Virus record (IMG/VR): IMGVR_UViG_3300044878_000242
Span: 1 to 60,872 of that record
From: a virus
Taxonomy: Duplodnaviria > Caudoviricetes
Strand: one strand, 5' to 3'
Length of the DNA stretch: 60,872 bases
The translations under genes and the position numbers were made by a program. A model generated the notes under the pieces. It was not told where the DNA came from. It saw only the letters and a list, made by a program, of their open reading frames with translations, and ran no database searches. Positions 3,702 through 60,872 of this stretch are shown here, one piece after another; the first letter of the stretch is position 1; each line of letters opens with the position of its first letter.

Positions 3702-3769
3702 TGTTAATTGTTCATTGATCCTTGATCCTTGTTCACCTGCACTTGGCGAAAGACAAGTGTTGTTCATTT

Positions 3770-5037: not shown

Positions 5038-5110
5038 TTACCAATTACTAACTACTAACTACTAACTACTAATTACTAATTACTAATTACTAACTACTAA
5101 CTACTAATTA
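5035..5110. repeat. Heptamer tandem repeat (ACTACTA/ACTAATT)
   Basis: About 10 consecutive 7-nt units. Confidence 0.9.
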
Positions 5111-5448
5111 CCAACCTCATCCCCCGGCCCGGTCCCAAGGTGAACCAACTTCCGCTCTTTTGGGGAAGGTGCTGATGCTAACGTCTTCGCTTTTATCATG
5201 TCATTGGGAATAAAACCGGGGAGTTGATCCACCCGTAGCCGGGCCATCATCTGATCTTGGGGTTCATCGACTTCATCGCCGTTAGGCATAGCCGCCAGGG
5301 GGAGTTGGGTCATTCTGCGCACACGTTCTGTTTCAATCAATTTGCGCACAATGTAGGATACGGAACGATCATCTTGCTTCGCCCAACGTTCAAGCAGTTC
5401 CTTCGTATCCGTATCCGTACTAAATGTCATTATGATAGGCTCTCCCAT
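5104..5448 (-). CDS. Ribbon-helix-helix DNA-binding protein (Cro-position regulator)
   Basis: IMTFSTD...LLERWAKQDDRSVSYIVRKLIE matches the RHH/CopG pattern; divergent from the repressor. Confidence 0.7.
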   Translation of the reverse strand: MGEPIIMTFSTDTDTKELLERWAKQDDRSVSYIVRKLIETERVRRMTQLPLAAMPNGDEVDEPQDQMMARLRVDQLPGFIPNDMIKAKTLASAPSPKERKLVHLGTGPGDEVGN

Positions 5449-7451: not shown

Positions 7452-7631
7452 CAAGCCCCACTCCCCCTACTATCTACCCCTACTCCCTACTCCCCCCCCC
7501 GGAAACGGTAAAATTTACCAACTCGTAGGGGGGGGTAAATAGGGCAGTAGGGCCTAGTAGGGGCATAGTAGGGGGTAGTAGGGGCACAGTAGGGGGTAGT
7601 AGGGGCAGTAGGGGCACCCAGGGAGACGCAT

Positions 7632-10461: not shown

Positions 10462-10488
10462 AGGTCACACAAACAACCTTGTCCCCCC
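10462..10488 (+). repeat. 28-bp motif, copy 3 (right arm 1 nt short)
   Basis: AGGTCACACAA-ACAACC-TTGTCCCCCT. Confidence 0.8.
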
Positions 10489-10527
10489 TACTCCCTACTT
10501 CCTACTCCCTACTCCCTACTCCCTACT

Positions 10528-12610: not shown

Positions 12611-12722
12611 AGTTTTGTCTTAGTTTGAACTTAATTACTTTTGGGTAGTTTCTTCCATCTTCCACTCACCACCCCGAATGGTTATACGAATATCCCCTTT
12701 AGTAATTACTAATTACTAATTA

Positions 12723-14303
12723 CTAACCCCCATAATGCCCCGCGTTGGTCGGCCAATTATTGTCCAGCCCGCGTTTGCGCTGGGCCAAATACATCTCGAG
12801 CCGGTCCGGCAGCAGATCAGTTCTTAGCCTGGCTCGATGCGCTTCAAAATCATAATCCACCTCGCCCAAAAAAAACGTCTCGCCGGTGGGCAACCATAAC
12901 AGCCGTTCTCCGGCCCGTATCTGGCTAACCGGGACCATGGCCCCGCCTTTAGTTGGAATCGAGCCGGCGATCTCGAACTCCCCCTTTGTTTTAGGATTCG
13001 CATATCGCCGTAAAAATGATTGCCCAATTGCATCAGCCAGCGCCGCATCGCCTGAACCTATGTCGATATCCATATCTCTTTGCCCATATTGGGCCACACT
13101 GGCGGCGTCCGTCAGGTTGGTATTTTCGTAGGGCGTCCGGTACCTCACCACCGCTTTTTCGTCAACGTACCTTACCGCGATCCAGTTAGATAGCGCCTCC
13201 CGGCTGCTCGGTGATAGACTGTATTTTGTCAGCCCTTTTACTGTCCGTGGATCGAGTTTATATTCATAATCCGCCGTGCTATAAAGCTTTGTTTCGGCCT
13301 GGGGCAATCGGTCGCTGCTGCTGCCCCCATCCCACACGGCAAACCCCCATTGATTAAGCGAGGCGTCCCCAAATTCCAAAATGTCCTCAATCATAGATAA
13401 GGCGTTCTGGAACCCGTCGCCTCGGCTTATAAACGGGATCAATGTCTGCCCCGGATCAGCGATAAGCGAATAGTCATTGCTGATAAACTCACCGGCCAAA
13501 TTTAACACCGTCTGGACCATCCCCCCCTGGGTATTCGCCGTGCTCCCGTACACTGTCAAAGCGGATATGTCTATCCAGTCGTTCTGATCAAACGTATTGG
13601 CATCCTGGGGCGACAGCCTGAACCGCATCAACGTGGATGACGCGCCGCTAAAATTAACCGTTACGTCTACCGGCCCGGCGGTACTGCTGTTAAGCTGCCA
13701 CTGGATGACCCCGTTCCCGTCTATCAGGCGAACTGCTATTATCTCGCCCGTCCTGATTTGGTAAGTGAACGTCACCCGTACAATCGGGTTGTTGGCCGGC
13801 ATAACATATTCCTGCCAATGATAATTAGTCGGGCTGATCACCGTATCAATGGCCGCCATTCGCATTTTGATTCTATTGTCGCGCTTTTCAACGACTGCCA
13901 CGTTTTGATCGGCGTAGACGTAGGTGAGTTGGCTATCCGGCCAGGTTAGCCGGTTGATGGCATTGTCTTCGGCGAATCTATACCGCAGCTTTCGATCCTT
14001 TAGCGAGGTCACCCAACCCAGCGCCTCTATCATTACGCTCTGCTCCGGCCCTGATAGCATGCGCTCCGGGTCTTCCAGCCGGCCCTGGTACACAATATAC
14101 TCACCATCCTTAACAATGACCTCATCCCCGCCGCCATAGACAATTTCTTTGAGTACATCACGCTTAACCACACCCGAATATTGCCCAAACCCGCCCGGCC
14201 AGCGCGAGCCGCAGCGTTGGCCGGTCAACCATTTGCTATCCCGAAAGAACGGATCGCTGATCTGGGTGCCGTTAAATTGCCGGAAATAGGTTTGAATGGT
14301 CAT
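12723..14303 (-). CDS. Tail/baseplate hub protein
   Basis: Position in the tail module; ASVAQYGQR and IRAGERL motifs typical of tail-tip hub proteins. Confidence 0.65.
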   Translation of the reverse strand: MTIQTYFRQFNGTQISDPFFRDSKWLTGQRCGSRWPGGFGQYSGVVKRDVLKEIVYGGGDEVIVKDGEYIVYQGRLEDPERMLSGPEQSVMIEALGWVTSLKDRKLRYRFAEDNAINRLTWPDSQLTYVYADQNVAVVEKRDNRIKMRMAAIDTVISPTNYHWQEYVMPANNPIVRVTFTYQIRTGEIIAVRLIDGNGVIQWQLNSSTAGPVDVTVNFSGASSTLMRFRLSPQDANTFDQNDWIDISALTVYGSTANTQGGMVQTVLNLAGEFISNDYSLIADPGQTLIPFISRGDGFQNALSMIEDILEFGDASLNQWGFAVWDGGSSSDRLPQAETKLYSTADYEYKLDPRTVKGLTKYSLSPSSREALSNWIAVRYVDEKAVVRYRTPYENTNLTDAASVAQYGQRDMDIDIGSGDAALADAIGQSFLRRYANPKTKGEFEIAGSIPTKGGAMVPVSQIRAGERLLWLPTGETFFLGEVDYDFEAHRARLRTDLLPDRLEMYLAQRKRGLDNNWPTNAGHYGG

Positions 14304-30338: not shown

Positions 30339-30424
30339 ATCTCCCTGAGACGATTTATTTACACAGGTAGCAGAGCGACCCTTGCCGCCCTGCTACCTAC
30401 TACCTACTGCCTACTTCCTACTGC

Positions 30425-31540
30425 CTACGAACTCATATCCGTGGTACTGATTACCACCCGCTCCGGCGCTTCGATCACTGGCAAGCCGTTGCTTACCCCG
30501 CGACCTTCCAGCGCCCATGGCTCCTGCTCCGGCGTGTACACATCCGCCCACCGGCCAGGGCGACCGCCGCCCTCAACCGTGGGTCCCAGATGGGTATAGC
30601 CCAACGCTTCCGGGGCCTCCATTGTCGATCCCTCGCCTACAACGTAGCGGGGCCGGGCATCGGTCCCCACAAAAACCACCTTACCCCGTGGCATAAACGG
30701 CACTTTTGTGGTCTGGCCAGGATTGGCCAGGTCAAAAATCTCGCCTTCATACCCGTAGGGGATCAGGTTGATCCGGTACAACTCGTTCTGGTCCAGGTTG
30801 GGGCTGGTGTCCGTCCCGCCGGCTCGCCGGGTGATGGTGATCACCCCGTTGTTATCGGTGATCTGCCCAATGGCGTTGACGCTGTTATACACAATGTCGT
30901 CCAGGGTGTCCGGGTGAAGGATGACCGCCCGGATTTGCCGCTTGAGCTGCTTGCGGGCCAACTTCACATCGTCCCACCATTTGGAGGTGGTGCCGTAATA
31001 TGAGTTGCCGGAGCCGGTCCGGGCCGTCAGTTTGTTCGCGGCCGGGATACCATAATCAACCGATAGCGTCTTTTTGTTGAACGTCCAGTTGATCGCGCCC
31101 GTCACCAAGGCCTGACCACGCAGATACTCAAACGTGTCCAGGTGGGCCTGCACAATCAGCTTGTCCACAAAGTTCAGAGCCTCGCTTTGCAGCGTCTCCA
31201 GCGTGGGTTGATTGTTGATCATCATGTGCATCAACATATTTTGCAGTTGACGCAGGGCTGATTCCGGCAGCCGCACCCGGTTGGCGATTTTGGCCGTTTC
31301 CTCAGTGAAGGTCTGGACATCGATCACCCCGCCCTCGGCGTATGGCGAATCCATCGCCGCCAGGCCGGCCATCGTGGTCCGCACCGTCATTGAGCCGGAT
31401 TTGGCCTGATAATCATAACTGTTTCGTTCAGGCAACAACGTCGCAAACAGATACGCTGCCGGCGGTCGAGCCTGATTCGCTACCATAAACGCGGCCCCGG
31501 TGGGCAGCGCTGCTAACGCCTGTGAGAAATTAAAGTTCAT
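30425..31540 (-). CDS. Major capsid protein
   Basis: 371 aa; EYLRGQALVTGAI and VDYGIPA motifs of the major capsid E-like family; follows scaffold and decoration genes. Confidence 0.85.
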   Translation of the reverse strand: MNFNFSQALAALPTGAAFMVANQARPPAAYLFATLLPERNSYDYQAKSGSMTVRTTMAGLAAMDSPYAEGGVIDVQTFTEETAKIANRVRLPESALRQLQNMLMHMMINNQPTLETLQSEALNFVDKLIVQAHLDTFEYLRGQALVTGAINWTFNKKTLSVDYGIPAANKLTARTGSGNSYYGTTSKWWDDVKLARKQLKRQIRAVILHPDTLDDIVYNSVNAIGQITDNNGVITITRRAGGTDTSPNLDQNELYRINLIPYGYEGEIFDLANPGQTTKVPFMPRGKVVFVGTDARPRYVVGEGSTMEAPEALGYTHLGPTVEGGGRPGRWADVYTPEQEPWALEGRGVSNGLPVIEAPERVVISTTDMSS

Positions 31541-35844: not shown

Positions 35845-35872
35845 CTACTCCCTACTCCTTACTCCCTACTTC

Positions 35873-36526
35873 TTACTCCCTGATAAAATACCACAAGCTA
35901 GGCCACGCCTCTTTGCTCACGTACAACTGCCGGCCCGTCCGCTGCGTAAACTCTATCACCGCCGACCGTACCCCGAATTTACCCAACGGCCCATCGTAAT
36001 CAACAAAATCGTGGCCGGCCACCATCCCCCCCGGCCTCACCACCTCCGACCAGGCTGCCAGATCGGCCAACACGGCCTCATAACTGTGATTGCCATCCAG
36101 ATAAACAAAGTCCAGGCTCGCCGGCCCCAGAAGGTTCGCCATTTTTAGCGACGACTCAATCACAATTTGCCCCCGTCCCCCAAACGCTTTCATCGCCTGA
36201 TACGTGGCCGATAGGTTGGAGCTGTGTTCGCCATCGCTCACATTCGCCACATCATCATACCCATCCGGCTGATGTTTCCACAAGTCCACCAAAAACAATT
36301 CCCCCTCCCAATGCTGTAACAGATAGCTGCTAAACTCGCCACGCTGCACCCCCACCTCGGCCCCCTGTTTGGCCCCCATCAACCGTAACAGCCCTGGCAG
36401 CCCCTGCCGGGTGCAGCACTCCATAAACCCATCAGCGCCGGCTACAGTCAAATGCAGCTCTAACGACACGGCCTCGTTGCCCAAATATGCCCCGACGGGC
36501 AAATGAAATGTAGCCAGGGTTGTCAT
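35873..36526 (-). CDS. Class I SAM-dependent methyltransferase (Methyltransf_24-like)
   Basis: GAEVGVQRG, LDFVYLDGNHSYEAV..DL..W...VRPGG..AGHDF. Confidence 0.85.
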   Translation of the reverse strand: MTTLATFHLPVGAYLGNEAVSLELHLTVAGADGFMECCTRQGLPGLLRLMGAKQGAEVGVQRGEFSSYLLQHWEGELFLVDLWKHQPDGYDDVANVSDGEHSSNLSATYQAMKAFGGRGQIVIESSLKMANLLGPASLDFVYLDGNHSYEAVLADLAAWSEVVRPGGMVAGHDFVDYDGPLGKFGVRSAVIEFTQRTGRQLYVSKEAWPSLWYFIRE

Positions 36527-42268: not shown

Positions 42269-43435
42269 CTACCTCACTAAAAGTGTCTGCACCGCGATTT
42301 CGCCCCTAGACGTTAGCCGCAACGAATCAATAGCTATATTCCCTGCTATTTCGTCCCCTTGCCAACCGTGTGGCCACGTGTTTGTAGCCCAAAGCTCCCT
42401 GATTCGCGCCTCCTCCTCGGTATTGATTAAATCCACCGAGGCCCGGCCCTGAATATCCAAAACCCGCTCCAACCCATAAGCGCGTGCTTCCATCGTTAGC
42501 GGCCCCAAACGCTGGACATTCTGGCTGTACTTACCATCCTTCCTCACTTCCGGCTCACTCTTACGAATACGCCATTTTGCCTTGATCAATTCCCGGAAAA
42601 GCGGCTTCAATTCCAGTAATGGGCTAAGGTGCGCCCACTCCGGCGTTTTTACCAACCGAATCAAGGCCGTGTCTTTGTTGACCAGATTGCACCCAATGCA
42701 GCCGGTGCGGGCATCGTCCTCCCCGTAAACCACCGCGATTTTGTCCACGTTATAGCCGTGCCTGGACTGTTCAAAATAAAGCCAATCGTAAATATGGCAC
42801 AATCGCCAATGCAGCAGCGGGGCCAGCGTATCCGCTACGCTCTTCGGCGTACTCACCTGAAACCAGCCTTGCCCACACTCACCCGAATCCTTTGAGCAAC
42901 TGACTGCTATCCGCTGATCTCGTGCGGCGCTTTCGCCAATGCGGACGCCGGTTAGCATGAGTAACTTTTCGCCCGCCTGCTCTCTGAGGTTTGACAACGC
43001 TGCCATCATCGGATCGACCTTAAGGGCGACGGTGCACCACCGGAAACGGTTTTTGGGCGGTGGCACCCCCCGGCCCAACATATACACATAAAACCGCTTA
43101 TCCAGTGGAGGCAAAACCACCTCAGCGTTATATCCATCATTCCTCAAAACATTCAATAACTTTACCGCCGTTTGCTGGAGCGGTGGTAACTCCTGGCGAG
43201 TATCAGCATACAGAATCGAAAGCGATTCCGGCGCAGCTACCTTGCCCGATTTGATAGCCCACGCCACAAATGCAACGGTGGCGCTGCTGTCTTTGCCGCC
43301 ACTGTAAGCAATGGCCCAATGCCGGTATCTCTCCCCATACGCGCTCAGGCTTGCCAGGCTCAACTCAATCGAGCTCTCCAAATCCAAGCGCTGATCCTCA
43401 AATAAGGAAATCTGCCTGCTAATTCCTTTACTCAT
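42269..43435 (-). CDS. PAPS-reductase family protein (DndC-like, putative DNA modification)
   Basis: AYSGGKDS PP-loop, RWCT..LK..P, GVRIGESAAR, RTGCIGC Fe-S motif. Confidence 0.85.
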   Translation of the reverse strand: MSKGISRQISLFEDQRLDLESSIELSLASLSAYGERYRHWAIAYSGGKDSSATVAFVAWAIKSGKVAAPESLSILYADTRQELPPLQQTAVKLLNVLRNDGYNAEVVLPPLDKRFYVYMLGRGVPPPKNRFRWCTVALKVDPMMAALSNLREQAGEKLLMLTGVRIGESAARDQRIAVSCSKDSGECGQGWFQVSTPKSVADTLAPLLHWRLCHIYDWLYFEQSRHGYNVDKIAVVYGEDDARTGCIGCNLVNKDTALIRLVKTPEWAHLSPLLELKPLFRELIKAKWRIRKSEPEVRKDGKYSQNVQRLGPLTMEARAYGLERVLDIQGRASVDLINTEEEARIRELWATNTWPHGWQGDEIAGNIAIDSLRLTSRGEIAVQTLLVR

Positions 43436-43680
43436 TGTTCCTTGATCCTTGATCCTTGATCCTTGTTCATTGTTCCTTGTTCATTCCTCTTCAGCCGCTC
43501 GCAGCGCCGCTGAAGCTCGGCGATATACTGATCTTTTCGATTGAGGTCTAAACAAAGCAACTTGACCTGATCTCTGAGTAGTCGAATCTTTTGATTGAGC
43601 CTGGCAAGCCGGCAATTCAGCATTATAAAACCTAATGCGGCTATCGCCACCAGGCTCACCCAAAACCACGTTTCAAGCAT
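43432..43680 (-). CDS. TM plus coiled-coil protein
   Basis: N-terminal TM segment, heptads. Confidence 0.5.
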   Translation of the reverse strand: MLETWFWVSLVAIAALGFIMLNCRLARLNQKIRLLRDQVKLLCLDLNRKDQYIAELQRRCERLKRNEQGTMNKDQGSRIKEQ

Positions 43681-45430: not shown

Positions 45431-46300
45431 TTATGCTTCAAGTAGTGGTAATTGAATTTGTTTTAGGGATGGCCGGACCAACTTCTTGCCCGGCTTAAAC
45501 GCCGGCGTAGCTCCCAAATCCGTTGTTCCCCGCCGTCTGATCCTCGTAATACCCCAAGCCCGCTCGCTCACAATATAAACCTCTCCACTGCGGAGAGATC
45601 TCATTTGCTCAAAACTGACCGGAATGTATTCCTTAAATGCCCTGAAGTCCGGGAAATAAGTCACCTTCCCGAAGATACGCACGTTAGCGCTGAAAATGAT
45701 CCGCTTATCCAAATACGTGCTCCGCTGGGTTGCGGTCACCAGGGCCATCCCCCGCTTCCGCCCATCCGTACTCACCCGGCCCAGCGCCCGCCGGCTGGCC
45801 CGCTCCGCCTCATCCGCCCCGATCTGCGGGGCAAAACAATGCGCCTCGTCCACCAGCATAAAACATGGCCGGCGAATCTTGGCCGCCATCTTGTAGTGGC
45901 ACTGCACCATGGCCGTAAACGTCGCCAGCCGCAGCTCATCATCAGGATCACTTAGATCCACTACCAAACTAAAGCCCTCATTCAGGGCCATCTCGATAAA
46001 CGAGCCGGGATCACGCAGCGCCACCCCCAGCGGATAATCCGCCCGCCGCAGCCGCTCCTCGTGATCCTGCTGCCCGATCACCACCACATCATCACCCAGC
46101 TCTCGCAGGCTGGCCGCGTCGCCATTCGGGTCATAATAGATAAACGGAATCTGATTCCGGTGCGCCTCTTCCGCAAACACCGCCAGGATATTACTCTTAC
46201 CCATCCCCTTATTACCCAGGATGGTCACCGTCAATCCCTCGGTGCTGTAGGGCGCGGTCGTCAGGTTGATCGTGGCCTCATCGCTCAATTGAATAATCAT
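45431..46300 (-). CDS. HerA/DUF87-like ATPase
   Basis: GNKGMGKS, MLVDEAHCFAP, GRKRG...ATQRS. Confidence 0.85.
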   Translation of the reverse strand: MIIQLSDEATINLTTAPYSTEGLTVTILGNKGMGKSNILAVFAEEAHRNQIPFIYYDPNGDAASLRELGDDVVVIGQQDHEERLRRADYPLGVALRDPGSFIEMALNEGFSLVVDLSDPDDELRLATFTAMVQCHYKMAAKIRRPCFMLVDEAHCFAPQIGADEAERASRRALGRVSTDGRKRGMALVTATQRSTYLDKRIIFSANVRIFGKVTYFPDFRAFKEYIPVSFEQMRSLRSGEVYIVSERAWGITRIRRRGTTDLGATPAFKPGKKLVRPSLKQIQLPLLEA

Positions 46301-47536: not shown

Positions 47537-47564
47537 AGGTCACACAAGCAACGTTGTTCCGCCT
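47537..47564 (+). repeat. 28-bp motif, copy 8
   Basis: AGGTCACACAA-GCAACG-TTGTTCCGCCT, overlapping the E1 stop codon. Confidence 0.85.
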
Positions 47565-48582
47565 ACCCCATCAACGTGACCATGGCTTCCGCGTCCTGAG
47601 TCTCGTAATAATCAACACGTCGAATCTTAAACCCGCAATTACAGAACATCACTTCCACCTCCCCCTCGGCTTCGTCGATCACATCGTAGCCCTCGATCAA
47701 TTCGCCGCCGCAGTCGGGGCATGGGTCGGTCACTGCCTCGTCGTTATCTGCTGGCTTCGCCCGCGTCAGCTCAACTACCTCACCATTCGCTATCGGCAAA
47801 CTATGCGCGGTCCCGCTGCGCTGATCCAACTCCGTCGCCATCATCCGTAAATCACGCGAGATCAGCAGCCGCTCGCAATACACATCGATCCAGGCCGCCA
47901 TCATTTTGTTGATGGTGCGCGATTGCACCTCCAGGGCCACCAGCTCAGCGCAGCTCAGCGCCTCGCCCTGGGCCGTCTCAATCTCCTCCGGGGCAATCAA
48001 CTCCGGCCGCTGCACGCTGGGCAGCGGCAGCGCAAACGCAAACCCCAACGGCGATAGCTGCGGTTTCGCCGCCAGACTGTTGCCCAAACAAACCTGCCCA
48101 TGGGCGTGATAATTGCCGGCGTCCAGCCAAAACAGCCCCCGCCCCTCAAACTCTCTCATCTCGCCCATTTCTCGGACCATGGCCCGGTGAATGTCGCGCC
48201 GAGCCGCCGTACTGTCCACGCAGCCCACCACCAGATTTATAAAATCAGGTCTCAGCATGTACTTGGTTAAAATCCCGGAGCTAAACTTTTCTGGAATAGA
48301 TACGATAGGCAGCCCAAACGCCGCCGAATAGCGCCGGGCCAGCGTCACCGCCTTGAACTCCCCCACCTCGCATGGCGCAAAGTTTTGCCGGGCCACGTTT
48401 TTCGTCTCTACCCGGTCGGGATCAATAAAAATCAGCTTGATCTCCATCTCCTGCCTGGCCGTGTGGGCCAGTTGGGCCAGGTGCAGCGCCGCATAGCTTC
48501 CCGTGCCCCCACACCCCACCAGCATAATCAACGCCTTCTCCGGCGCCCCAATTTCCAGCCGGTACGTTTTAATCGGTTTCAT
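47563..48582 (-). CDS. ThiF/E1-like ubiquitin-like activating enzyme (PRTRC type) with C-terminal zinc ribbon
   Basis: VGCGGTGS, DPDRVETKNVARQNF, GCVDS..ARR, WLDAGN, LSCAE. Confidence 0.9.
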   Translation of the reverse strand: MKPIKTYRLEIGAPEKALIMLVGCGGTGSYAALHLAQLAHTARQEMEIKLIFIDPDRVETKNVARQNFAPCEVGEFKAVTLARRYSAAFGLPIVSIPEKFSSGILTKYMLRPDFINLVVGCVDSTAARRDIHRAMVREMGEMREFEGRGLFWLDAGNYHAHGQVCLGNSLAAKPQLSPLGFAFALPLPSVQRPELIAPEEIETAQGEALSCAELVALEVQSRTINKMMAAWIDVYCERLLISRDLRMMATELDQRSGTAHSLPIANGEVVELTRAKPADNDEAVTDPCPDCGGELIEGYDVIDEAEGEVEVMFCNCGFKIRRVDYYETQDAEAMVTLMG

Positions 48583-49243
48583 GTGGATCCTCCCACGGGT
48601 CAATAAATGGCCCCAACCCGTCAAATAACATCAACGGCGACACTTCCACCCAATCCCCATAAACCCCCAGCCGCAACCGTATTTCCGGCCGGCTGTAAAT
48701 CTTCCCAATCACCCCATAGAATCTACAGCCTTGCTCATCAGCATCATCCGTCTCAGAAAAAAAGGCTCTCATCTCATGGTGACTGTGCAGATCGAGCACA
48801 ATACTCGCCTCATTGCCGCCCCGATACGCTACGTGCCCCGCCGTCGCCTCCTGTTTGGGTATGCTTACCCGCCAGCGTCCACATGGCGCAAACCCAGGCC
48901 CGGATGATTCAGCCCACCAGTGAAAATGATACATCTGCTCAATGACCCGTAATATCTCCCCTCTCCCACCTGACCCCGACAACCCACACCGCCGAGCATG
49001 CTCCAACACGGTGTGCAACCAGGTCGCCGGAATACGTGGCGCTCGCAGCTCCACACCTACCGGATAATCCGGCAATCCAACAATTCTACCCGGAGCCACA
49101 ACCATCGCCGCCCTGAACTGGTCCGACTCAGCCAGCTTGATCACCCCCTGCCCGGCCAAAACATAGCTGTACAAGTCGGGCGCCGGTATTTCCTGCCCGG
49201 TGAAAATATGATAAGCTACTGGGTTAGGCAGTGGTGCTCTCAT
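48569..49243 (-). CDS. JAB/MPN metalloprotease (PRTRC protein A-like)
   Basis: LDLHSHHEMRAFFSETDDADE (HxH-x7-S-x2-D). Confidence 0.88.
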   Translation of the reverse strand: MRAPLPNPVAYHIFTGQEIPAPDLYSYVLAGQGVIKLAESDQFRAAMVVAPGRIVGLPDYPVGVELRAPRIPATWLHTVLEHARRCGLSGSGGRGEILRVIEQMYHFHWWAESSGPGFAPCGRWRVSIPKQEATAGHVAYRGGNEASIVLDLHSHHEMRAFFSETDDADEQGCRFYGVIGKIYSRPEIRLRLGVYGDWVEVSPLMLFDGLGPFIDPWEDPHETD

Positions 49244-52822: not shown

Positions 52823-53059
52823 TTACAGGTCACACAAACGGGATTGTTCATCCTCCAGGAGCAATAATCCCAATTTGAAAAAAATCTCCGCCGCCGTCTG
52901 TTCCCCTATACCCTTCACCCCATCGAGCGCCACCTCCGCAATCCCCTGGATTCCCTCATCCCGTCTGTACACCTCCAGCGCCGTCTCCCGCCCCAACTTG
53001 TCTACTGTCCCCTCATCATCCAACATAATCAATTTCCAAAACCTCGCCACATCATTCAT
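52823..53059 (-). CDS. Small protein with HhH-like motif
   Basis: LDGVKGIGEQTAAEI. Confidence 0.55.
   Translation of the reverse strand: MNDVARFWKLIMLDDEGTVDKLGRETALEVYRRDEGIQGIAEVALDGVKGIGEQTAAEIFFKLGLLLLEDEQSRLCDL
52827..52854 (+). repeat. 28-bp motif, copy 9
   Basis: AGGTCACACAA-ACGGGA-TTGTTCATCCT. Confidence 0.85.
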
Positions 53060-53097
53060 TGTTCATTGATCATTGTTCATTGTTCATTGTTCATTGA

Positions 53098-53445
53098 TCA
53101 CGCCATCGGACTATCATCATTCAACGCGCTTTGCCCCTGCCCCTCGACCACCTGAAACCGATCATACGGCTCCACCCAATACCCTGGCTGCTGTTGCGGC
53201 TGGCCTCCGTAAAGCGGTAGCGCCGGCATCCTGATATGATTATTGATCCGGGGCGGCTGCCCCCCGCCAAATACCGCCGCCGTCCATTGCCGGTTCAAAA
53301 ATAATAGCGCCAGGGCCATCACCACCCCCCCCAAAATAAACATTGCCAGCGCCAAGAAAATAATCCAGGCTGTTTCATTGACTGCAAAAAGGTAGACCAA
53401 CCCTGCGCCTATCGCCAGGCCCAATCCCAAACCAACAGCTTTCAT
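53098..53445 (-). CDS. Two-TM membrane protein
   Basis: Hydrophobic N-terminal half; coupled to the FtsK-like gene. Confidence 0.6.
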   Translation of the reverse strand: MKAVGLGLGLAIGAGLVYLFAVNETAWIIFLALAMFILGGVVMALALLFLNRQWTAAVFGGGQPPRINNHIRMPALPLYGGQPQQQPGYWVEPYDRFQVVEGQGQSALNDDSPMA

Positions 53446-54743
53446 ATTGCCACGCCCCCTTCTCGTCTAACCCGGATCCAGTATTGTATCCGGCTTCTCA
53501 CCTCTATTGCGTAATCCCGCGCAAGCTGGGACTGCCCCATGCTGCCCTTAAATTGTCGCTGAATCCCCGTGGCGCTATCTCGGACCACCAACGCATAGGC
53601 CAGTCGATCCGGGTCTACCTGCCACCTGCCCGGCTCAATCACCCTATCCCCAATCGGCTCGCCAAGTCCCGGTGTTGAGATTGTTTCTACCCTCGGAAGC
53701 TGCTCATAGTCCGCTTCTGCCGGCAGCGCCACCCTGAATCGGATCACCGGCCCGCCGTTGGTGGCCAGCGCGTCGCCTTTGCCGGTCCCATCCGGGCTGC
53801 CCAGGCTGCCGGTGTGTTGGCCCTTCACCCGCAGCGCCATATAAGCCTGGTCGTCCGGCAGTTGCAGCGCGATCCGGGCCAGGAAGTTGGCCTGGGCCAA
53901 ACTCCCCTTGTCTCCAAACGTGCTCGGATTCGCCGCCTGGCTGGCCACAACCAGGTTGAATCCCAACCCGCCTGACATCTGGCTGAGTTGGGTAATCATC
54001 GGGCCACTTTCCCTCATTACCTCGGTCAATTGGGCGACCTCATCTAAAATAATCGCCCATCTCACCCGCTGGCGCTGCGCATCGGCCCGCCGCTCCTCCA
54101 TCTCTCGCAGGGCATAGCGTAGCAACCCCACTGAAGACTCGTAATCATTCGCAATCGGCGCGGCCAAATGCGCCAGATTTTCAAACGGCCTAAAAGCCGG
54201 ATCATTCTTTGGGTTGATAATCAAAAACTTTAGCTCTTCCGGCTTGTACGCTCGCGCCAGGCTCAACACCACCACCGCCTCTAAGACGGTTTTGCCGGTG
54301 CGCGTCGAGCCAAAAATGGCCTTGTGCGGATTATTCTCCAAATCGAGCCGGGCCACTGGCCCCAGGGCCCGTTGGCCCACCGTAATGCTCTCTCGATGCT
54401 TCGGCAGATTAGCCAGCCGTACCTCCCGCCATTGGGCCGAGGGCAAGGTAAATTCCACCCGGATCAAGTTCAAATCCCGATACACCCGCGCAAAATGGCT
54501 TTGTGACCGCATAGCGAATCGCTCACCCAGCCCGCTCACAGTATCCCAATCCAAATCATCAATCATCATGGAAACCGTCACGCACTGCGGTCCGGCCACC
54601 GGGCGCGAAGTGAATCTAAATGGAATCCCGTTGGGTAGTCTCACGCTTCGCCCCATCGTCCTGAAACCCTTCCGCTTTGCCTCGCTGTTCACCAACACCT
54701 GCGCCACCGCCGCCAAATAGAGTCGTTCGTCAAAATTTGCCAT
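53442..54743 (-). CDS. FtsK/SpoIIIE-family ATPase
   Basis: PHKAIFGSTRTGKT, IINPK, IILDEVAQL, LVVASQ. Confidence 0.85.
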   Translation of the reverse strand: MANFDERLYLAAVAQVLVNSEAKRKGFRTMGRSVRLPNGIPFRFTSRPVAGPQCVTVSMMIDDLDWDTVSGLGERFAMRSQSHFARVYRDLNLIRVEFTLPSAQWREVRLANLPKHRESITVGQRALGPVARLDLENNPHKAIFGSTRTGKTVLEAVVVLSLARAYKPEELKFLIINPKNDPAFRPFENLAHLAAPIANDYESSVGLLRYALREMEERRADAQRQRVRWAIILDEVAQLTEVMRESGPMITQLSQMSGGLGFNLVVASQAANPSTFGDKGSLAQANFLARIALQLPDDQAYMALRVKGQHTGSLGSPDGTGKGDALATNGGPVIRFRVALPAEADYEQLPRVETISTPGLGEPIGDRVIEPGRWQVDPDRLAYALVVRDSATGIQRQFKGSMGQSQLARDYAIEVRSRIQYWIRVRREGGVAI

Positions 54744-55002: not shown

Positions 55003-55877
55003 CGCTTTACCAGACAATAATACCGGTATTGCACATTGGCCTGCTTCATCTTCATTTTTTTTGCAATCACCGCCCATCGTACCCATTGCCGCCGGCAATC
55101 CAGCAAAAAAGCATCAGCCTCTTTGCTCCAGCGTTCGTCGAACAACACGCTCCTGGCCGCCCCCTTACCTTTCAAGAACCTCACCTCCGGCCGCGTCGCC
55201 TCAGACCGCAATATCTTCCAGTTGGACCACTTTACCGCTTTGATCTCCCCCCGCCGGATCGCCCGGTTTACATCAAAATGTTCTACCCCGTGATACGCCG
55301 CCACCTCGCCAATCGTCCACCACTCATCCCCCCAGCGCGCTTTTTGTCGCTCAATCAGCCGGCGCAGATGTGGGTCCAAAATCCGCGCGGTGTCCCTCAT
55401 AGAATTAAAAAAATATAGCCAATTCTCCGGGTTCACCGCCCAGCGCAGCAGCGTCACATACCGGATCATTCTAATCCGCCGCCCGCCTGGCAGCACCCGG
55501 CTCGGTAGCCGGCCCGTATCCGTCAAAAAACATATGGCATGTACATCTATCCCCAGCAGCGCCGCCGCCTGGTGCGCGGTCACCCAACCCGGTCGTTTGC
55601 TTTTAACGATAATCCCTCGCCGCACCTGGACGATTTTTATGGCGTTCTCTGTCCGCCCTAGCCGGGTTGCCAATTCGTTGGTATTCAGCACAGGTAGATT
55701 CTCATCCAGCCACCGCAGATCACTCAGGCTCCACCGAAACGACTTTGCCGGATTAACCCGGCCCGTCTCGATCACGCCGGACACCTGCGCCCCAGGATGC
55801 CGGCTGCCCACAATAGCCGGATCAACCCCGGATTCAAGTTCCGCTTCAGCTATCAACGAATCAAGATCAAACATCAT
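54978..55877 (-). CDS. Multi-HTH DNA-binding protein
   Basis: ELATRLGRTENAI, VTAHQAAALLGI and WTIGEVAAYHGV HTH-like units. Confidence 0.65.
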   Translation of the reverse strand: MMFDLDSLIAEAELESGVDPAIVGSRHPGAQVSGVIETGRVNPAKSFRWSLSDLRWLDENLPVLNTNELATRLGRTENAIKIVQVRRGIIVKSKRPGWVTAHQAAALLGIDVHAICFLTDTGRLPSRVLPGGRRIRMIRYVTLLRWAVNPENWLYFFNSMRDTARILDPHLRRLIERQKARWGDEWWTIGEVAAYHGVEHFDVNRAIRRGEIKAVKWSNWKILRSEATRPEVRFLKGKGAARSVLFDERWSKEADAFLLDCRRQWVRWAVIAKKMKMKQANVQYRYYCLVKRGETTSLV

Positions 55878-56835
55878 CGCAGTTCACCCGCTTAATCAAG
55901 CTCTCTACAAATTCAATCAACCCCGGGCAACTCAAGCACCTCGCCGTCAACCCGTTGGCCGCGCACGGGCCACACAACTCCTCAGCCATCGCCCGTATTT
56001 CCTCAGCGCAGGCCGGGCAAAAACAGCGCACCGCGATTGTCTCCGGCGCCGGCAGTTGCACCCGCTTTACCTCTGCCTGCTGCACGGCCACCCTTGCCGC
56101 AGGCGGAGCCACTACTACCGCCTGGTCCAGGGTTTGTTTCACCTTGGCAACCGACCGTACAATAACCTCAATGCTCGCCCCCTTCTCCGCAAACCGCCGC
56201 GCTAATTGCAGCCTGGTCTCTTCCGGCAATTCGAGCAAAGCCTTGGTTACATGGCTATCCTTGCTGATTTGCCCACTTTCCATATACCCCATAATCTCCG
56301 GGTCTAATTTTAATATATCCATCCGGCTCTTGATATACCCCTGCGATTTTCCGCACAATTTAGAAACCCTATTAAGGCTCTTGTGGATTTTTAGAAGCCG
56401 CTCGTAAGCCCGCCCCTCCTCTACCAGAGTCAAATCCTCTCGCTGCAAATTCTCCACCACCGCCACAGATTCTCTGTCCATCTGCTCCGGCGCCACCCTC
56501 ACCCGTACCTCAACTCGTTTTAGAATCGGGTACGTTCCCAAAACCTCCCAGGCGTCATCCCGACACACCAGCTCAATCGCTTCATCCAGCGGAACCAGGT
56601 CCGTCGATAACGCAATCGCGCACATCGCCCTGGAGCGCCGTTCCCCGGCGAGCAGCCGGTAGTGCCCATTTTCCGCGTACACAATCGGCGGATTGAGCAG
56701 GCTGTGCTGCCGGATGCTGTCCACCAATTCACTCATGCTGCCTGCCTCAAACTTCTGCCGCACCTGCTGCGGCCCTGGCTTGATTTTGTCCAGCGTTGTT
56801 TTTCGCTCTTGCAACATCTCCAATTCGATCATCAC
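55867..56835 (-). CDS. parB: ParB-family protein with Cys-rich C-terminus
   Basis: ELVDSIRQHSLLNPPIV, LLAGERR, ENLQREDL..VEEG, HTH; CFCPAC..CGPC..CLSC. Confidence 0.85.
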   Translation of the reverse strand: MMIELEMLQERKTTLDKIKPGPQQVRQKFEAGSMSELVDSIRQHSLLNPPIVYAENGHYRLLAGERRSRAMCAIALSTDLVPLDEAIELVCRDDAWEVLGTYPILKRVEVRVRVAPEQMDRESVAVVENLQREDLTLVEEGRAYERLLKIHKSLNRVSKLCGKSQGYIKSRMDILKLDPEIMGYMESGQISKDSHVTKALLELPEETRLQLARRFAEKGASIEVIVRSVAKVKQTLDQAVVVAPPAARVAVQQAEVKRVQLPAPETIAVRCFCPACAEEIRAMAEELCGPCAANGLTARCLSCPGLIEFVESLIKRVNCDDV

Positions 56836-56885
56836 TCTACCCTCGCCCTATTTTCTACTAATTACTAATTACTAATTACTAACTA

Positions 56886-57113
56886 CTAACTACTGGTCAA
56901 CCGCCACTGCTTCACCCGGCGCCCCTTAAAATGCTTATCCTGCCGCCCGATATGAAACAGCCCGCACCATTTGCACCGGTACACCCGCCGCTGCTCCCTG
57001 AGCGCCCCCACCCGATACAACACCATCAACCCGTGAAACGCCTGCTCAAACGTCTCATACCGGCCCGATTTGTTAGTACACTCCCTGCGGCGCAGCCGGC
57101 GCTTACTGGACAT
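56886..57113 (-). CDS. Small zinc-finger protein
   Basis: C..K..Y...YRCKWCGLFHIG. Confidence 0.6.
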   Translation of the reverse strand: MSSKRRLRRRECTNKSGRYETFEQAFHGLMVLYRVGALREQRRVYRCKWCGLFHIGRQDKHFKGRRVKQWRLTSS

Positions 57114-57330
57114 TGTGTCCATTCCGGCTAACTGCCAACTCCCCCGCATCCAGCGCCCTCACTACGTCGCCCAACTCCACGATCAACCGGCCCCTAGCGT
57201 CCCGGCAGTGCAGCCGTCCGGCTCTCAGATTCTCGTCAACCCAGCGCACCGCCCCCAGCGCCGCCAAATACGCCTGGTTCCGCTCTTTTAGCGCCGCCGT
57301 GTCCATTAACTGATTAAAATTGCCGTCCAT
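57103..57330 (-). CDS. Hypothetical protein
   Basis: GGAGG RBS before MDGNF. Confidence 0.5.
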   Translation of the reverse strand: MDGNFNQLMDTAALKERNQAYLAALGAVRWVDENLRAGRLHCRDARGRLIVELGDVVRALDAGELAVSRNGHNVQ

Positions 57331-57352
57331 AAAACGCCTCCTGCCAACTCCG

Positions 57353-57829
57353 CTACGCAATTGCCCGATCAAGCTCCGGCAATTTTATCTCTGATTTTTC
57401 GCTAATAATAGCCGCCAACCTAAAATTCGCCGCGCATTTCAAGATGTGATCGGCCAGACGTTTCTCCTCATCGGTCAAGCTTTGCCGGGGCGTTTTTATC
57501 ACAACCTCACTTCCTCGCACAATTTTATCCAGCCCCCCATTAAGGTAAGTCACACCAAGGTTGATTCTGCCTGAATCGTTCAGGCATTGAAACGCCTCCC
57601 CCCTAAATACCGGTTTAAGGATTACATTGTGATTTTTCTCCAGTTTCTTGCGCCACACCTGGGTAATCGTTTTCCAACGCCTCTGGTCCCATTTAATCCC
57701 TATCACCTCCTCTATTTCCGCGTATTTGATCTGCTGGTTCGGAGCCGGGGTACCAAATTTATCAAGGAGCGCATTAACCTCCGGCTCGGTAGTTGCGCCC
57801 CCCTTTGGAAATACGTAATTTTTTGTCAT
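57353..57829 (-). CDS. Uncharacterised partner of the Cas7-like gene (possible winged-helix DNA-binding protein)
   Basis: ATGA overlap with 57826-58491; basic, IKYAEIEEVIG helix pattern. Confidence 0.65.
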   Translation of the reverse strand: MTKNYVFPKGGATTEPEVNALLDKFGTPAPNQQIKYAEIEEVIGIKWDQRRWKTITQVWRKKLEKNHNVILKPVFRGEAFQCLNDSGRINLGVTYLNGGLDKIVRGSEVVIKTPRQSLTDEEKRLADHILKCAANFRLAAIISEKSEIKLPELDRAIA

Positions 57830-58491
57830 TTCATCAACTCCTCAACTTGAACCGTAAATTTACCAAATGATCCCGGAGATTTTGGTGAGGACGGTCGCCA
57901 ATCGCCCAGCCCGCAGTAGGCTCCGGCAGTGGTGATAATAGTGGTTAAAACGTGCTTCGTTATCCGCTCATCAAAAACGGTCAGACTGCCCGCGAGCCGC
58001 CAATTATCGAAGCGCGGTCTAACTCTAACGTGTTTGGCCGCGCCGATTTTGGCCCGCTTCACAAACAACTCAAACCCCAGCGACTCCACGGTCTCCTTAT
58101 GCTGCTGAAAATCATCAACCCGGGTTAGAGGCTTTATCTTATCGTAAAGCACCTCAGCTCCATTGATTAAAATCGCCCAGGCCGATTGGTCTACCACGAT
58201 GCCCGATTGAGTCACCGCTTTAAATGTTTCCGTCCCCTTCCCCGTGCTGATTTTTTTGCCGCCTTCGCGCAGCATCGTCATTAAATTATCAGCCGGAACA
58301 ACGATCTTCCCACCCTCCACATACAGGCAGCCCATCCAGCGCCACGCCGGTGTTCTGTCGTCGCCGGGCACGCTGCTTTTGCTGTGAGTTGGATCTGTAG
58401 ACCACTTTTTCAGCATATCACCCCAATCCAAATTGTCCTGATGTAGCAACAATGGAGTCTCCCCAACCAAAATAACTTTATATCGTTTCAT
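57826..58491 (-). CDS. Solitary Cas7/RAMP-like protein (Vipr-like)
   Basis: RAMP hallmarks: beta1 YKVILVGETPLLLH, VVPADNLMTMLREGG, VRVRPRF, and C-terminal G-rich loop GLGDWRP...GSFGKFTV. Confidence 0.75.
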   Translation of the reverse strand: MKRYKVILVGETPLLLHQDNLDWGDMLKKWSTDPTHSKSSVPGDDRTPAWRWMGCLYVEGGKIVVPADNLMTMLREGGKKISTGKGTETFKAVTQSGIVVDQSAWAILINGAEVLYDKIKPLTRVDDFQQHKETVESLGFELFVKRAKIGAAKHVRVRPRFDNWRLAGSLTVFDERITKHVLTTIITTAGAYCGLGDWRPSSPKSPGSFGKFTVQVEELMK

Positions 58492-58529
58492 CGTTAGCCC
58501 CTTATAAATAAATTTGTTAGTAAAAGTTT

Positions 58530-58743
58530 GGCTTTACAGCCCCTCGATCCGTGCCATGCCGTGCCGCGCCCTGCCACGCCTCACCCCGCCACGCCGTGAT
58601 CCTTGCCCTGCCTAGCCAGGCCTCGCCCAGCCAAGCCGTGCCTCGCCCAGCCAAGCCATGCCCAGCCGTGATCCTCGCCTTGCCCTGCCTTGCCTTGCCG
58701 CGCCAAGCCGCGCCGCGCCGTGATCCCTGCCTAAAACCAGGCC
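58530..58743 (-). ncRNA. GGY-NN pentamer array: candidate guide RNAs in three tracts with GGATCAC separators and a 3' GNRA hairpin
   Basis: Tracts of 9 (58719-58675), 13 (58667-58603) and 9 (58595-58551) GGYNN units; GGATCAC three times; terminal GGATCG; GGCT-GTAA-AGCC hairpin. Confidence 0.8.
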
Positions 58744-58766
58744 ACACAAGAAAGCTTGTTCATCCT
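58739..58766 (+). repeat. 28-bp motif, copy 11 (at the 5' edge of the GGYNN array)
   Basis: AGGCCACACAA-GAAAGC-TTGTTCATCCT. Confidence 0.8.
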
Positions 58767-58768
58767 CT

Positions 58769-59020
58769 CTACCCAAACAACCCCTCCAACAGCGCCTCAG
58801 TCTCCCTCACCTCCGGCTGGGCCGCCGCCCGGGCCTCGACCAATCCACCTGCCGCCACCCGGTCCAGAATATCCGCCCGCCGGTGGGGGTCCGCCGCGCC
58901 GAGCATCGCCAGCAGCTCCCCCAACTCCACACTATGGAATCGGGGATCAAACCTCACGTTCAGCCGGTACATCCTCCCCGGATTCGCCGGCCGCCCCGAT
59001 TTCCCCTTTGCCCCAGCCAT
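58769..59020 (-). CDS. Small DNA-binding-like protein (possible ParR-type adaptor)
   Basis: MAGAKGKSGRP...YRLNVRFD strand then helices; two genes downstream of parM. Confidence 0.45.
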   Translation of the reverse strand: MAGAKGKSGRPANPGRMYRLNVRFDPRFHSVELGELLAMLGAADPHRRADILDRVAAGGLVEARAAAQPEVRETEALLEGLFG

Positions 59021-59026
59021 ATTGAA

Positions 59027-59806
59027 TTACCAACTCCGTTGTGCTTTCTTAAATTTGGCTTCCATCTCATCAACTTCATAGCGGACACTCTCGGCCAACC
59101 GCCGGGCCTCGGCTGCCTCTCTTTGGGCGTCATCAGCTTTCCGGCGGGCGGCCGATTCCGCTTCTCCGTGATAATATTCAGCGTTAGAATACGCGCGTTC
59201 AATCTCCTCGATTTGGCCGGTTAATGTATTCCGATCTGCCTGAATTTTAGTAAAAAGGTTGAGCAGGGTGACGGCTACTGGATCGCCCGAAACCTGGTCA
59301 AACAAAGACCTAAGTTTATCATCCTCTTGAACTTTGGCCGTTGCTTTTTTTCTTCGCTGCGCCTCTTTCTCGACCATGTACTCGGCCTCTCTGATCTCTT
59401 CTTCGGCTTGTCTCCACCACGATTTAGCCGCACAGTCCAACGCCTCACCCAGGTTGTCAAACGAATTATATTGGTCAACTCGCCATTTGAGTGTGGTATT
59501 TTTGGAGAGGTCATCTACCTGATTCAAGACAGTGGACAATCCGAAATGATCTGGAATGTTCAGGTGGAAGACGATGGAGTTCAGTCCCGTGTTACCTCTC
59601 CAGTTCCCCTCAAGTTTTCCAAATAATTTAAACTCGCTGATATCAGCCCCCGTATATCCTGCCAAAAACTCGCAAACTGCGGGAAATAGGTTATCTAACA
59701 CGGCCTTTTGTTTTGCTTGTATTTCCTCGTCTCTGGCAATCCGCATGTCCTCCGCCTGGCGGATTTTATCCTGATATTCAATTTTTAATTCTGTAAAAGT
59801 GGTCAT
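59027..59806 (-). CDS. Coiled-coil hypothetical protein
   Basis: AGGAG RBS; long charged helices. Confidence 0.65.
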   Translation of the reverse strand: MTTFTELKIEYQDKIRQAEDMRIARDEEIQAKQKAVLDNLFPAVCEFLAGYTGADISEFKLFGKLEGNWRGNTGLNSIVFHLNIPDHFGLSTVLNQVDDLSKNTTLKWRVDQYNSFDNLGEALDCAAKSWWRQAEEEIREAEYMVEKEAQRRKKATAKVQEDDKLRSLFDQVSGDPVAVTLLNLFTKIQADRNTLTGQIEEIERAYSNAEYYHGEAESAARRKADDAQREAAEARRLAESVRYEVDEMEAKFKKAQRSW

Positions 59807-59847: not shown

Positions 59848-60872
59848 CTACCCCAGATACCCACTGATCGCCAGCTTTGCTAGCCCCCGCGCGTTGGCCA
59901 TCGCCGGCGCCGGTGCTAACTCCGCATGTGAAAATTCCTTGATCAACCGGCTGGCCAGGGCCACCGCCCCGCCACCGGTCAGGATAATCCGAAACTTTCC
60001 GGCATCTTTCCGTACCCGCTGCCGGATAAACTGCAACACATCCGCCGCCAGGCTGTTAATCGCCTGGTTAATCTCCGCGCTCACGTCCACCGGCTCACCG
60101 TGGGCATACACCATCGCCGCCTCACCATCGAGCAGCCGGCGCAACTGCCAATCGGCCTCGTGCAGCCCCAGGCTCACCCCATACCGCCGCTCGATATTGC
60201 CGATGAACATCTCCGCTGCCCGGGCCATCCCCAGGGCCTCGCCGGCTGTATAGCGCTCGCTCGGCCGGCCGTTCTCCACCGCGAACAAGTCCAGGGTATT
60301 GAAGCCCTGGTCAATCACCAGCACCGGCGCGTTCCGCCCTTCGGCCCCTTTGGACCATTGGCCGGTATTGTTGAACCCCCAGTCCAGCCAGGCCCCCAGC
60401 GGCTGGGCCACCGTCGCCCGAATTTTTACCACCTCTATCGCGGCCTCAACCCCATTAAAATCAAACCGGTGCCGTCCTACCAACCACGCCGCCATACCCC
60501 GTTCGGTATCCTCGGCCTGGCTTTTATTCGCCAGCATCTCCACCGGCAGCCCAATCGCTACGGCCACCTTCTGCCCGGTCAAACCCAGTTGCGCCACCAG
60601 CGCGTAAAACATCGCCCGCAGCTCCGAGCTGCTGACGAATCGGCTCTTGTCCAACTGCTCGATGGGCCGGGTATAGGTGGCCACATTGGGCCCCACCAGG
60701 TACTCCATCCCCTCAAACCCCACCTGAAACGGCAGATCACCCCGCCGGGCAATGTCCAGGCCGGCCAGGTTGAATCCGCTCGGCTCAATAATTCGCCCCG
60801 CGCCCGCCACGCTCGGCATGGTCGCCGTATTCATCTGCCCATTGATCCAGGCCGCTTTTTGGCAGCCATAGC
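59848..60872 (-). CDS. ParM/StbA-family actin-like ATPase (PRTRC protein D-like), 5' end cut by the window
   Basis: GLPVE, IDQGFNTLD (phosphate 2), ILTGGGA (adenosine), ANARG. Confidence 0.88.
   Translation of the reverse strand, partial: YGCQKAAWINGQMNTATMPSVAGAGRIIEPSGFNLAGLDIARRGDLPFQVGFEGMEYLVGPNVATYTRPIEQLDKSRFVSSSELRAMFYALVAQLGLTGQKVAVAIGLPVEMLANKSQAEDTERGMAAWLVGRHRFDFNGVEAAIEVVKIRATVAQPLGAWLDWGFNNTGQWSKGAEGRNAPVLVIDQGFNTLDLFAVENGRPSERYTAGEALGMARAAEMFIGNIERRYGVSLGLHEADWQLRRLLDGEAAMVYAHGEPVDVSAEINQAINSLAADVLQFIRQRVRKDAGKFRIILTGGGAVALASRLIKEFSHAELAPAPAMANARGLAKLAISGYLG
60326..60872. repeat. Imperfect direct terminal repeat, right copy
   Basis: Aligns without gaps to 1-547. Confidence 0.95.

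Follow-up and report, generated by a model that had tools for sequence, protein, structure and literature searches.

A very probable VIPR system with a compact, punctuated guide array in a temperate phage from sediment metagenomes

Introduction

VIPR (Viral Interference Programmable Repeat) systems entered the literature in 2026, and only a handful of phages have provided characterised examples. For the coliphage SUSP1, the available parts of the primary reports describe a cryo-electron microscopy (cryo-EM) structure in which one Vipr protomer occupies each 5-nucleotide (nt) unit of the guide RNA, a GGY triplet serving as the protein handle and the NN dinucleotide as the code (10.64898/2026.04.26.720927). 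They further describe a mechanism in which the Vipr filament reads double-stranded DNA (dsDNA) with one base skipped per unit, forms a triplex R-loop and silences the transcription of competing elements with help from a Vap protein (10.64898/2026.04.26.720920; 10.64898/2026.04.26.720927; 10.64898/2026.10.15.759431). Here we analyse a minus-strand locus in IMG/VR viral record IMGVR_UViG_3300044878_000242, in which a GGYNN repeat array, a vipr gene and a vap-like gene follow one another on a temperate-phage contig. The entire record, linear and 60,872 bases long, is referred to below as the window. The locus is very probably a VIPR system carried by a temperate phage.

The published VIPR loci typically consist of vipr and one vap gene. 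DNA binding is predicted for the Vap proteins of types II, VI and VII, winged-helix models are given for those of several types, and vap1 enhanced protection in SUSP1, according to the accessible sections of the main report (10.64898/2026.04.26.720920). A further report, also available in part, describes 99 period-5 VIPR-like clusters recovered from metagenomes (10.64898/2026.10.21.760802), so that canonical arrays in metagenomic data are in print as well. The locus analysed here is a further member of this published kind, from a metagenome, and the kind itself is no longer novel. It is well preserved and compact in array grammar, and lies far from the type II examples that have been studied.

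Results

The array is composed of three perfect GGYNN tracts joined by short punctuation elements, all on the minus strand. At its upstream end, a degenerate leader (58727-58743; GGCCT GGTTT TA GGCAG, that is, two units, a 2-nt break and one unit, kept outside the perfect-run counts) is followed by a GGATCAC punctuation (58720-58726) of the same class as the GGA[ATG]C+NN separators of related loci described below. Tract 1 (58675-58719) contains 9 GGYNN units, with NN = GC GC TT GC AA AA AG AA GA. A second GGATCAC (58668-58674), which shifts the 5-nt register by 2, separates it from tract 2 (58603-58667), which contains 13 units with NN = TG AT TT TG GA AC TT TG GA CT TA AG AA. A third GGATCAC (58596-58602) leads to tract 3 (58551-58595), again of 9 units, one of them GGT, with NN = GT GG GA GT AG GC AC AT AC. 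Tract 3 is closed by a terminal GGATCGA (58544-58550) and by a candidate 3' cap, GGGGCTGTAAAGCC (58530-58543), with a GGCU/AGCC stem and a GUAA loop, for which the evidence is comparative. A 38-nt A/T-rich stretch holding an AAGGGG ribosome-binding site lies between the candidate cap and vipr. The predicted fold of tracts 1 and 2 is modest (z -2.15), and an Rfam search of the window at the gathering threshold gave 0 matches.

On neither strand of the window are there runs of at least 4 GGYNN units other than the three tracts. The five-unit GGYNN pattern has 19 matches, all within 58553-58719 of the minus strand, against 0.01 expected by dinucleotide-preserving shuffles (n=100), none of which reached 19. 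When the scan was relaxed to 8-unit windows containing 6 or more GGY units, the minus strand gave 22 hits, none of them outside 58500-58760, and the plus strand gave 0. The array observation is confirmed because the tracts are the sole runs in the window, because 19 matches stand against 0.01 expected and because the relaxed scan is empty elsewhere. A first-pass annotation of this DNA, made from the letters alone, had described one array of about 200 nt lying some 55 nt upstream of the gene on its strand. The array is indeed real, non-chance and on the strand of vipr, the minus strand; it is divided into three tracts rather than one, the perfect part (58551-58719) measures 169 nt (~215 nt with the degenerate leader units and tail), and its distance from the vipr start codon is 59 nt.

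The gene downstream of the array (57826-58491, minus strand, ATG start) encodes a 221-residue RAMP/Cas7-like protein, a guide-binding protein by homology, referred to here as Vipr. Every motif on which the first-pass annotation had based its RAMP/Cas7 assignment is present: TPLLLH at residues 12-17, VVPADNLMTMLR at 64-75, VRPRF at 157-161, GLGDWRP at 194-200 and GSFGKF at 207-212. A phmmer search of the Protein Data Bank (PDB) gave a sole real match, chain 36pp_D, the 'SUSP1 Vipr protein' (E 9.8e-12), over Vipr residues 91-214; a 27-sequence family profile matched the same chain (E 1.4e-13) with the N-terminus aligned too. Comparison by hhalign with gp096, the Vipr homologue of Felixounavirus wV8, gave 99% probability (E 8e-18) over 186 columns, and a PHROGs search placed Vipr in the unannotated family phrog_4652 (E 2.1e-19). 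No family was matched in Pfam and PADLOC searches with the Vipr protein. The first-pass attribution to VIPR systems, which pair GGY/NN guides with a Cas7-like protein, proved well founded, both in the homology to the solved SUSP1 Vipr and in the accessible text of the two reports in which these systems are described (10.64898/2026.04.26.720920; 10.64898/2026.04.26.720927).

The AlphaFold2 (AF2) model of Vipr (mean pLDDT 87.3, pTM 0.84) has the strand and helix order of an RRM, with a beta hairpin added at 141-172. Foldseek, run against a pdb library up to 2026-04-08 that is without 36pp, returned 51 matches at E <= 0.001, and the matches listed at this threshold (about 40) are all CRISPR class 1 effector complexes. 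In a VIA search the best match was the type VII Cas7 8z4j_F (Z 11.0, rmsd 3.6, 162 residues), spanning the whole model, and the best 50 rows consist entirely of CRISPR class 1 effector entries and Csm3/Cmr4/Cas7-11 proteins. The Cas7-type subunits matched belong to type VII, III-A, III-B, III-D, III-E and IV-B effectors. As modelled, then, Vipr has the RAMP/Cas7 fold anticipated in the first-pass annotation, with a single RRM core, a glycine-rich loop and a thumb.

Residues that contact the guide in SUSP1 are largely retained. The part of the structural report available to us lists H17, R138, D177, W178, R179, C173, E71 and M72 at G1, G2 and Y3, and K33 as a contact to the target backbone needed for silencing (10.64898/2026.04.26.720927). 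In our alignments six of these correspond to identical residues in the present Vipr (H17 to H17, R138 to R158, C173 to C193, D177 to D197, W178 to W198 and R179 to R199), and E71 aligns to D68. Across 27 aligned homologues H17, R158, D197, W198 and R199 are invariant; C193 is not.

No cas1, cas2, other cas gene or CRISPR was seen in the window, as the first-pass annotation had stated. The Pfam Cas1 and Cas2 profiles had 0 matches in its six frames, PADLOC found no cas family among the 44 window open reading frames (ORFs) of at least 150 residues, and the Tandem Repeats Finder output contained no CRISPR-like rows. This absence holds for the window only, because the record is linear and ~66% complete by CheckV.

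Relatives of Vipr are numerous. At E <= 0.001, Vipr matches 1,664 clusters of a 90%-identity collection, the best non-self match being 68% identical, and 1,121 cluster representatives of a 50%-identity library. In 50,697 deposited phage genomes there are 121 matching records, each at less than 60% identity and none a close relative; in the 30 of these matches that were listed, identity is near 26% and no product name is functional. We assembled a set of 83 homologous loci, 67 viral and 16 genomic, the latter with named hosts among Acidobacteriota, Nitrospira, Burkholderiales, Planctomycetota and others. In 78 of the 83, one or more runs of at least 5 GGYNN units are present, so the pairing of gene and array proposed in the first-pass annotation recurs across the family. 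All runs but one lie on the vipr strand, in one of three places: upstream of vipr, immediately downstream of it or beyond the following gene. The loci that lack a run are L049, L051, L057, L064 and L079, of which L057 breaks off inside vipr and L079 measures 2 kb. Four further contigs were noted: X1 is identical over the whole stretch and may come from the source sample, X2 is identical in three pieces, and X3 and X4 match only in partial, diverged pieces, with loose ends that resemble other period-5 arrays. A search for RNA runs covering the stretch gave none.

The arrays of these loci and of the window were compared for their grammar. Over the runs of the homologous loci and the three of the window, there are 3145 GGC and 613 GGT triplets. 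The NN positions have ~3.8 of 4 bits of entropy; the last NN of a tract has 2.1-2.4 bits and is semi-fixed as AA, GA or AT. Of the 313 gaps between successive runs in the loci and the window, 118 have a length of exactly 7 nt and the sequence GGA[A/T/G]C followed by two further bases. As these final two bases vary within a locus, what stays constant in the separator is a unit whose Y position is occupied by a purine, with a register change of 2. Another ending is a mini-hairpin placed directly after the run, found at 92 of 391 runs vs 365 of 5040 control GG positions; for distinct run-following stretches that start with GGG, the counts are 72 of 95 with a perfect mini-hairpin vs 279 of 3318 control GGG positions. 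We collected 34 distinct hairpin sequences after runs, with differing stems; this list was selected for perfect complementarity, and the unbiased figures are the two enrichment counts. One of the hairpins, GGGGCTGTATAGCC of locus L038, is close to the element that follows the last punctuation in the window.

Array grammar follows protein clade. At 55% identity or above, the loci contain 43 runs with punctuation and 0 with a hairpin cap; below 42%, they contain 2 with punctuation and 30 with a hairpin cap. In the window, punctuation follows all three tracts, and a hairpin-like element follows the last. Some loci carry uninterrupted GGYNN runs of 37 units (L052, 2409-2593), 29 units (L042, 2820-2964) and 28 units (L080, 2803-2942), which far exceed the 9-16 units reported for studied vrRNAs.

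The first-pass annotation had called the RAMP-like gene solitary. It is not, because a conserved vap-like partner follows it: the gene at 57353-57829 (minus strand) encodes 158 residues, and its ATG overlaps the vipr stop codon in the sequence ATGA at 57826-57829. By tblastn this protein occurs in 47 of the 83 related loci, where it mostly begins no more than tens of bases from the vipr stop; the five other ORFs nearby in the window do not recur in the 83. The AF2 model (pLDDT 90.7) consists of an N-terminal winged helix and a long helical hairpin. In the best 20 rows inspected of a VIA-wide search, residues ~10-90 lie on domains judged from their entry titles to be winged-helix, with middling Z of 5.4-7.8. 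Foldseek against pdb gave no match to the model at E <= 0.001, a PDB sequence profile search gave nothing convincing (best E 0.0017, a helicase fragment), and Pfam, PHROG and PADLOC returned no family. A word-indexed homologue search found only the protein itself, the relatives having come from tblastn on the loci. An hhalign comparison of the family profile with wV8 gp095, the gene directly after vipr in wV8, gave 95.6% probability (E 1.1e-8). We take the 158-residue gene to be a vap, probably allied to vap1, wV8 gp095 being read as vap1 by its position only.

Targets were sought under the published NNx rule, in which one base is skipped per unit. Within the window the best sites matched 13/18, 19/26 and 14/18 specified bases for the three tracts, all inside the shuffled-guide nulls; the available part of the main report likewise describes no self-targets in the published systems (10.64898/2026.04.26.720920). 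Exact NNx scans of the viral_contigs collection gave 0 matches for tract 2 (26 specified bases) and 0 for tract 3. For tract 1 (18 specified bases) there was 1 match, in L084, in codon register within a 401-residue ORF of a seemingly AT-rich, unrelated phage, where the preceding NN is AA and not AC. We treated it as chance, ~1 match being expected by an estimate that had no control scan. Adding the separator AC and dropping the last NN gave 0 and 0 matches. Two sub-patterns of tract 2 (units 1-9 and 5-13) matched 2 and 7 loci and were set aside, as the remaining 8 positions agreed at chance level (0-3/8); the highest total, 21/26, came from a contig with 34% G+C. In metagenome_contigs, exact scans with full tract 2 and with its first 11 NN each gave 0 matches. 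These collection scans were for exact patterns only and therefore miss targets mismatched in the scanned part. When up to 3 mismatches were allowed, tract 2 had 0 matches in 40 related viral records (of the 67) searched over their full length.

The genes of the window are phage-like throughout and include integrases, a major head protein, a tape measure, a terminase, a scaffold, a head-morphogenesis protein, a repressor-like protein, DnaC- and DnaD-like loaders and partition genes. The partition genes flank the VIPR locus, with the ParB-like gene at 55867-56835 and the ParM-like gene at 59848-60834. A tyrosine integrase and a serine recombinase are encoded at 2177-3421 and 7632-9218. Together, the partition and integrase/recombinase genes suggest that the phage may be maintained integrated or as a plasmid. 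A search with the major head protein matched only distant Bacillus and Geobacillus phages.

Several other features of the contig were recorded. The phage carries a DndC/PAPS-reductase-like gene (PHROG E 1.9e-130; PADLOC DndC E 4.3e-35), an E1/ThiF-like gene and two HerA/FtsK-like ATPases; this set lies at 42269-43435, 47563-48624, 45431-46300 and 53442-54743, and may be DNA-modification or anti-defence cargo. Tandem Repeats Finder identified at least 10 short tandem arrays of 7-nt units in intergenic gaps, with 4-11 copies each (2156-2194, 5036-5111, 7545-7616, 10486-10527, 12699-12726, 30389-30428, 35845-35881, 43435-43482, 53055-53100 and 56856-56894); the units include AATTACT, CCCTACT, TTACTAA, CCTACTA, CTACTCC, TTGTTCC, TTCATTG and TACTAAT. 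Several adjoin the start codons of minus-strand genes. The array at 35845-35881 is GGAGTAG repeated five times before a 617-residue head gene, that at 43435-43482 precedes the PAPS-reductase-like gene, and that at 56856-56894 precedes the ParB-like gene. Possible explanations are spacers of Shine-Dalgarno type, a signature of the host or binding sites. A minus-strand ORF of 961 residues (24726-27611) resembles a virion structural protein and contains long tandem repeats that keep the reading frame (63, 126 and 189 nt; 64-74% matches).

Discussion

Among described systems, the locus is closest to the type II VIPR of SUSP1 and the Felixounavirus phages, known to us from the accessible parts of the main report (10.64898/2026.04.26.720920; PDB 36pp). 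Both have a homologous Vipr with the same GGY-contact residues, GGY/NN repeats upstream of vipr and a small gene directly after it that is related at profile level; both are phage-borne and have no cas genes. The SUSP1-type guides are separate RNAs of ~100 nt, each with a pseudoknotted tail, whereas here the tracts abut via GGATCAC and finish in a 14-nt hairpin-like end, and no array follows vap. The wV8 array is mostly GGT; GGC dominates here. The comparison is with a lytic coliphage, in contrast to the present temperate phage from sediment metagenomes. In the wV8 record (L094, NC_012749.1), the annotated direct repeats 'DR_4' (2259-2316 and 3652-3709) flank the vipr-vap pair and are placed 3' of period-5 tracts rich in GGT. 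They resemble the conserved tails that vrRNAs have in the SUSP1 clade, and their annotation predates the naming of VIPR by years.

The Cas7 subunits of class 1 CRISPR effectors (type VII Cas7, Csm3, Cmr4) share the RRM core, the loop rich in glycine and the thumb hairpin with Vipr, at 9-13% identity among the ten best VIA rows. Cas7 polymerises on guide RNA with a fixed period. The parallel with Vipr polymerisation is also drawn in the available text of the main report (10.64898/2026.04.26.720920). Unlike these effectors, the locus is accompanied in the window by no Cas5, Cas6, large or small subunit, Cas1, Cas2 or repeat-spacer array, and its period is 5 nt with 2 coding bases, compared with 6 nt and 5 coding bases. 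The locus is not a CRISPR-Cas system.

Several observations weigh against assigning the locus to VIPR. Identity to the studied SUSP1-type proteins is ~26%. SUSP1 M72 aligns to N69, and K33 aligns to T32, the latter in a low-confidence, poorly aligned stretch. The G-loop has a 7-residue insertion, SSPKSPG, that is missing from SUSP1; judged from the alignment, this insertion separates the clade of the present Vipr from SUSP1. The array is without a SUSP1-like tail of tens of nucleotides with a pseudoknot. The fold predicted for the window's own mini-hairpin lacks significance (z -0.54), and the structure of lowest energy has other pairings. A scan of 57000-59200 for sigma-70-like promoters found none. 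No natural target above chance was found in the window, the 83 related loci, the 40 full-length related viral records or the viral and metagenome collections.

How the guides are delimited admits more than one explanation. We entertain, tentatively, the possibility that the clade of this phage uses an array grammar not yet described, in which head-to-tail guides are delimited only by GGA[ATG]C. Under this grammar, the delimiter may be a repeat unit in which a purine replaces the Y that the pyrimidine pocket requires, the register then moving by 2 nt; the last NN may be a semi-fixed handle; and distant relatives may cap each guide with a covarying mini-hairpin of 4-6 bp. Having both punctuation and a terminal hairpin, the window would then represent an intermediate form.

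A rather unlikely alternative to three discrete guides is that the system is VIPR and that the ~190-nt tract is a single long guide of 31 units, or a set of overlapping 'staggered' RNAs, with GGATCAC as a processing or phasing signal. It draws on the legend of figure S18 in the main report, which describes staggered vrRNA arrays of other VIPR types as having no spacers, the end of one being the start of the next (10.64898/2026.04.26.720920). Compared by this legend description only, the GGAWC-punctuated arrays of the present clade resemble those arrays, and the punctuated form here may be the published staggered form. The tracts are also only 7 nt apart, and within loci the final two separator bases are variable, like those at guide positions. 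Against this, the 7-nt unit breaks the 5-nt register, so that a continuous filament on a continuous NNx target is hard to reconcile with it; a purine at Y conflicts with the pyrimidine pocket described for SUSP1 in the accessible part of the structural report (10.64898/2026.04.26.720927); and the tract lengths of 9-13 units fit the 9-16 given in the available text of the main report (10.64898/2026.04.26.720920).

It is considerably less likely that an intact system serves the phage's own regulation or acts on host genes, for example in lysogeny control or host takeover, and not on rival elements. The locus does sit in a maintenance region, between the ParM-like and ParB-like partition genes, and a target in a rival element was not found in the viral or metagenome collections. 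However, none of the 60,872 bases of the phage offers a site above the shuffled-guide nulls under the one-base-skip rule, and the natural targets named in the accessible part of the main report are satellites, prophages and other VIPR loci (10.64898/2026.04.26.720920). Least credible by far is that the tract is a coding low-complexity region or a neutral microsatellite beside an unrelated RAMP-like protein such as a CRISPR effector remnant: ORFs of 76 residues (minus) and 176 residues (plus) can be drawn across it, and structural similarity alone cannot separate Vipr from Cas7, but a 5-nt period with 7-nt breaks cannot hold a reading frame, tract and protein family occur together in 78/83 loci with a constant strand relation and differing lengths and NN, Vipr has direct sequence homology to a solved Vipr protein, and the window has no other cas gene or CRISPR array.

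Taking the locus as a VIPR system directed at competing elements, we propose the following course of action. The array region (58530-58743) would be transcribed in the direction of vipr. One Vipr protomer would then bind each 5-nt unit, with G1 and G2 held by H17, D197, W198 and R158 and the pyrimidine by R199 together with C193 of the next protomer; the resulting helical filament would present the NN dinucleotides. The residues are conserved here, and the binding mode is modelled on the SUSP1 cryo-EM structure, which, in the part of the report available, agrees with the one-subunit-per-unit arrangement, GGY handle and NN code proposed in the first-pass annotation (10.64898/2026.04.26.720927). 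By homology, the filament would read dsDNA in the NNx register and block transcription of a competing mobile element, and the winged-helix Vap, translationally coupled to vipr, may assist on the DNA. The comparative data suggest that the tracts act as three separate guides of 9, 13 and 9 units delimited by GGATC, in which a purine takes the Y position and should misfit the pyrimidine pocket, and which at 7 nt in length puts the repeats out of register. A 3' handle, and not code, would be formed by each tract's last NN and by the terminal mini-hairpin.

The locus leaves the picture of what VIPR is unchanged and adds to it an example from an uncultured temperate phage of sediment metagenomes. 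Its compact punctuated array and the clade-linked grammar provide material for asking how guide boundaries are set, a question that bears on the engineering of multi-guide VIPR arrays. If the purine unit is a filament stop or a processing ruler, Vipr would delimit its own guides without a Cas6-like nuclease, a ribozyme or a long tail.

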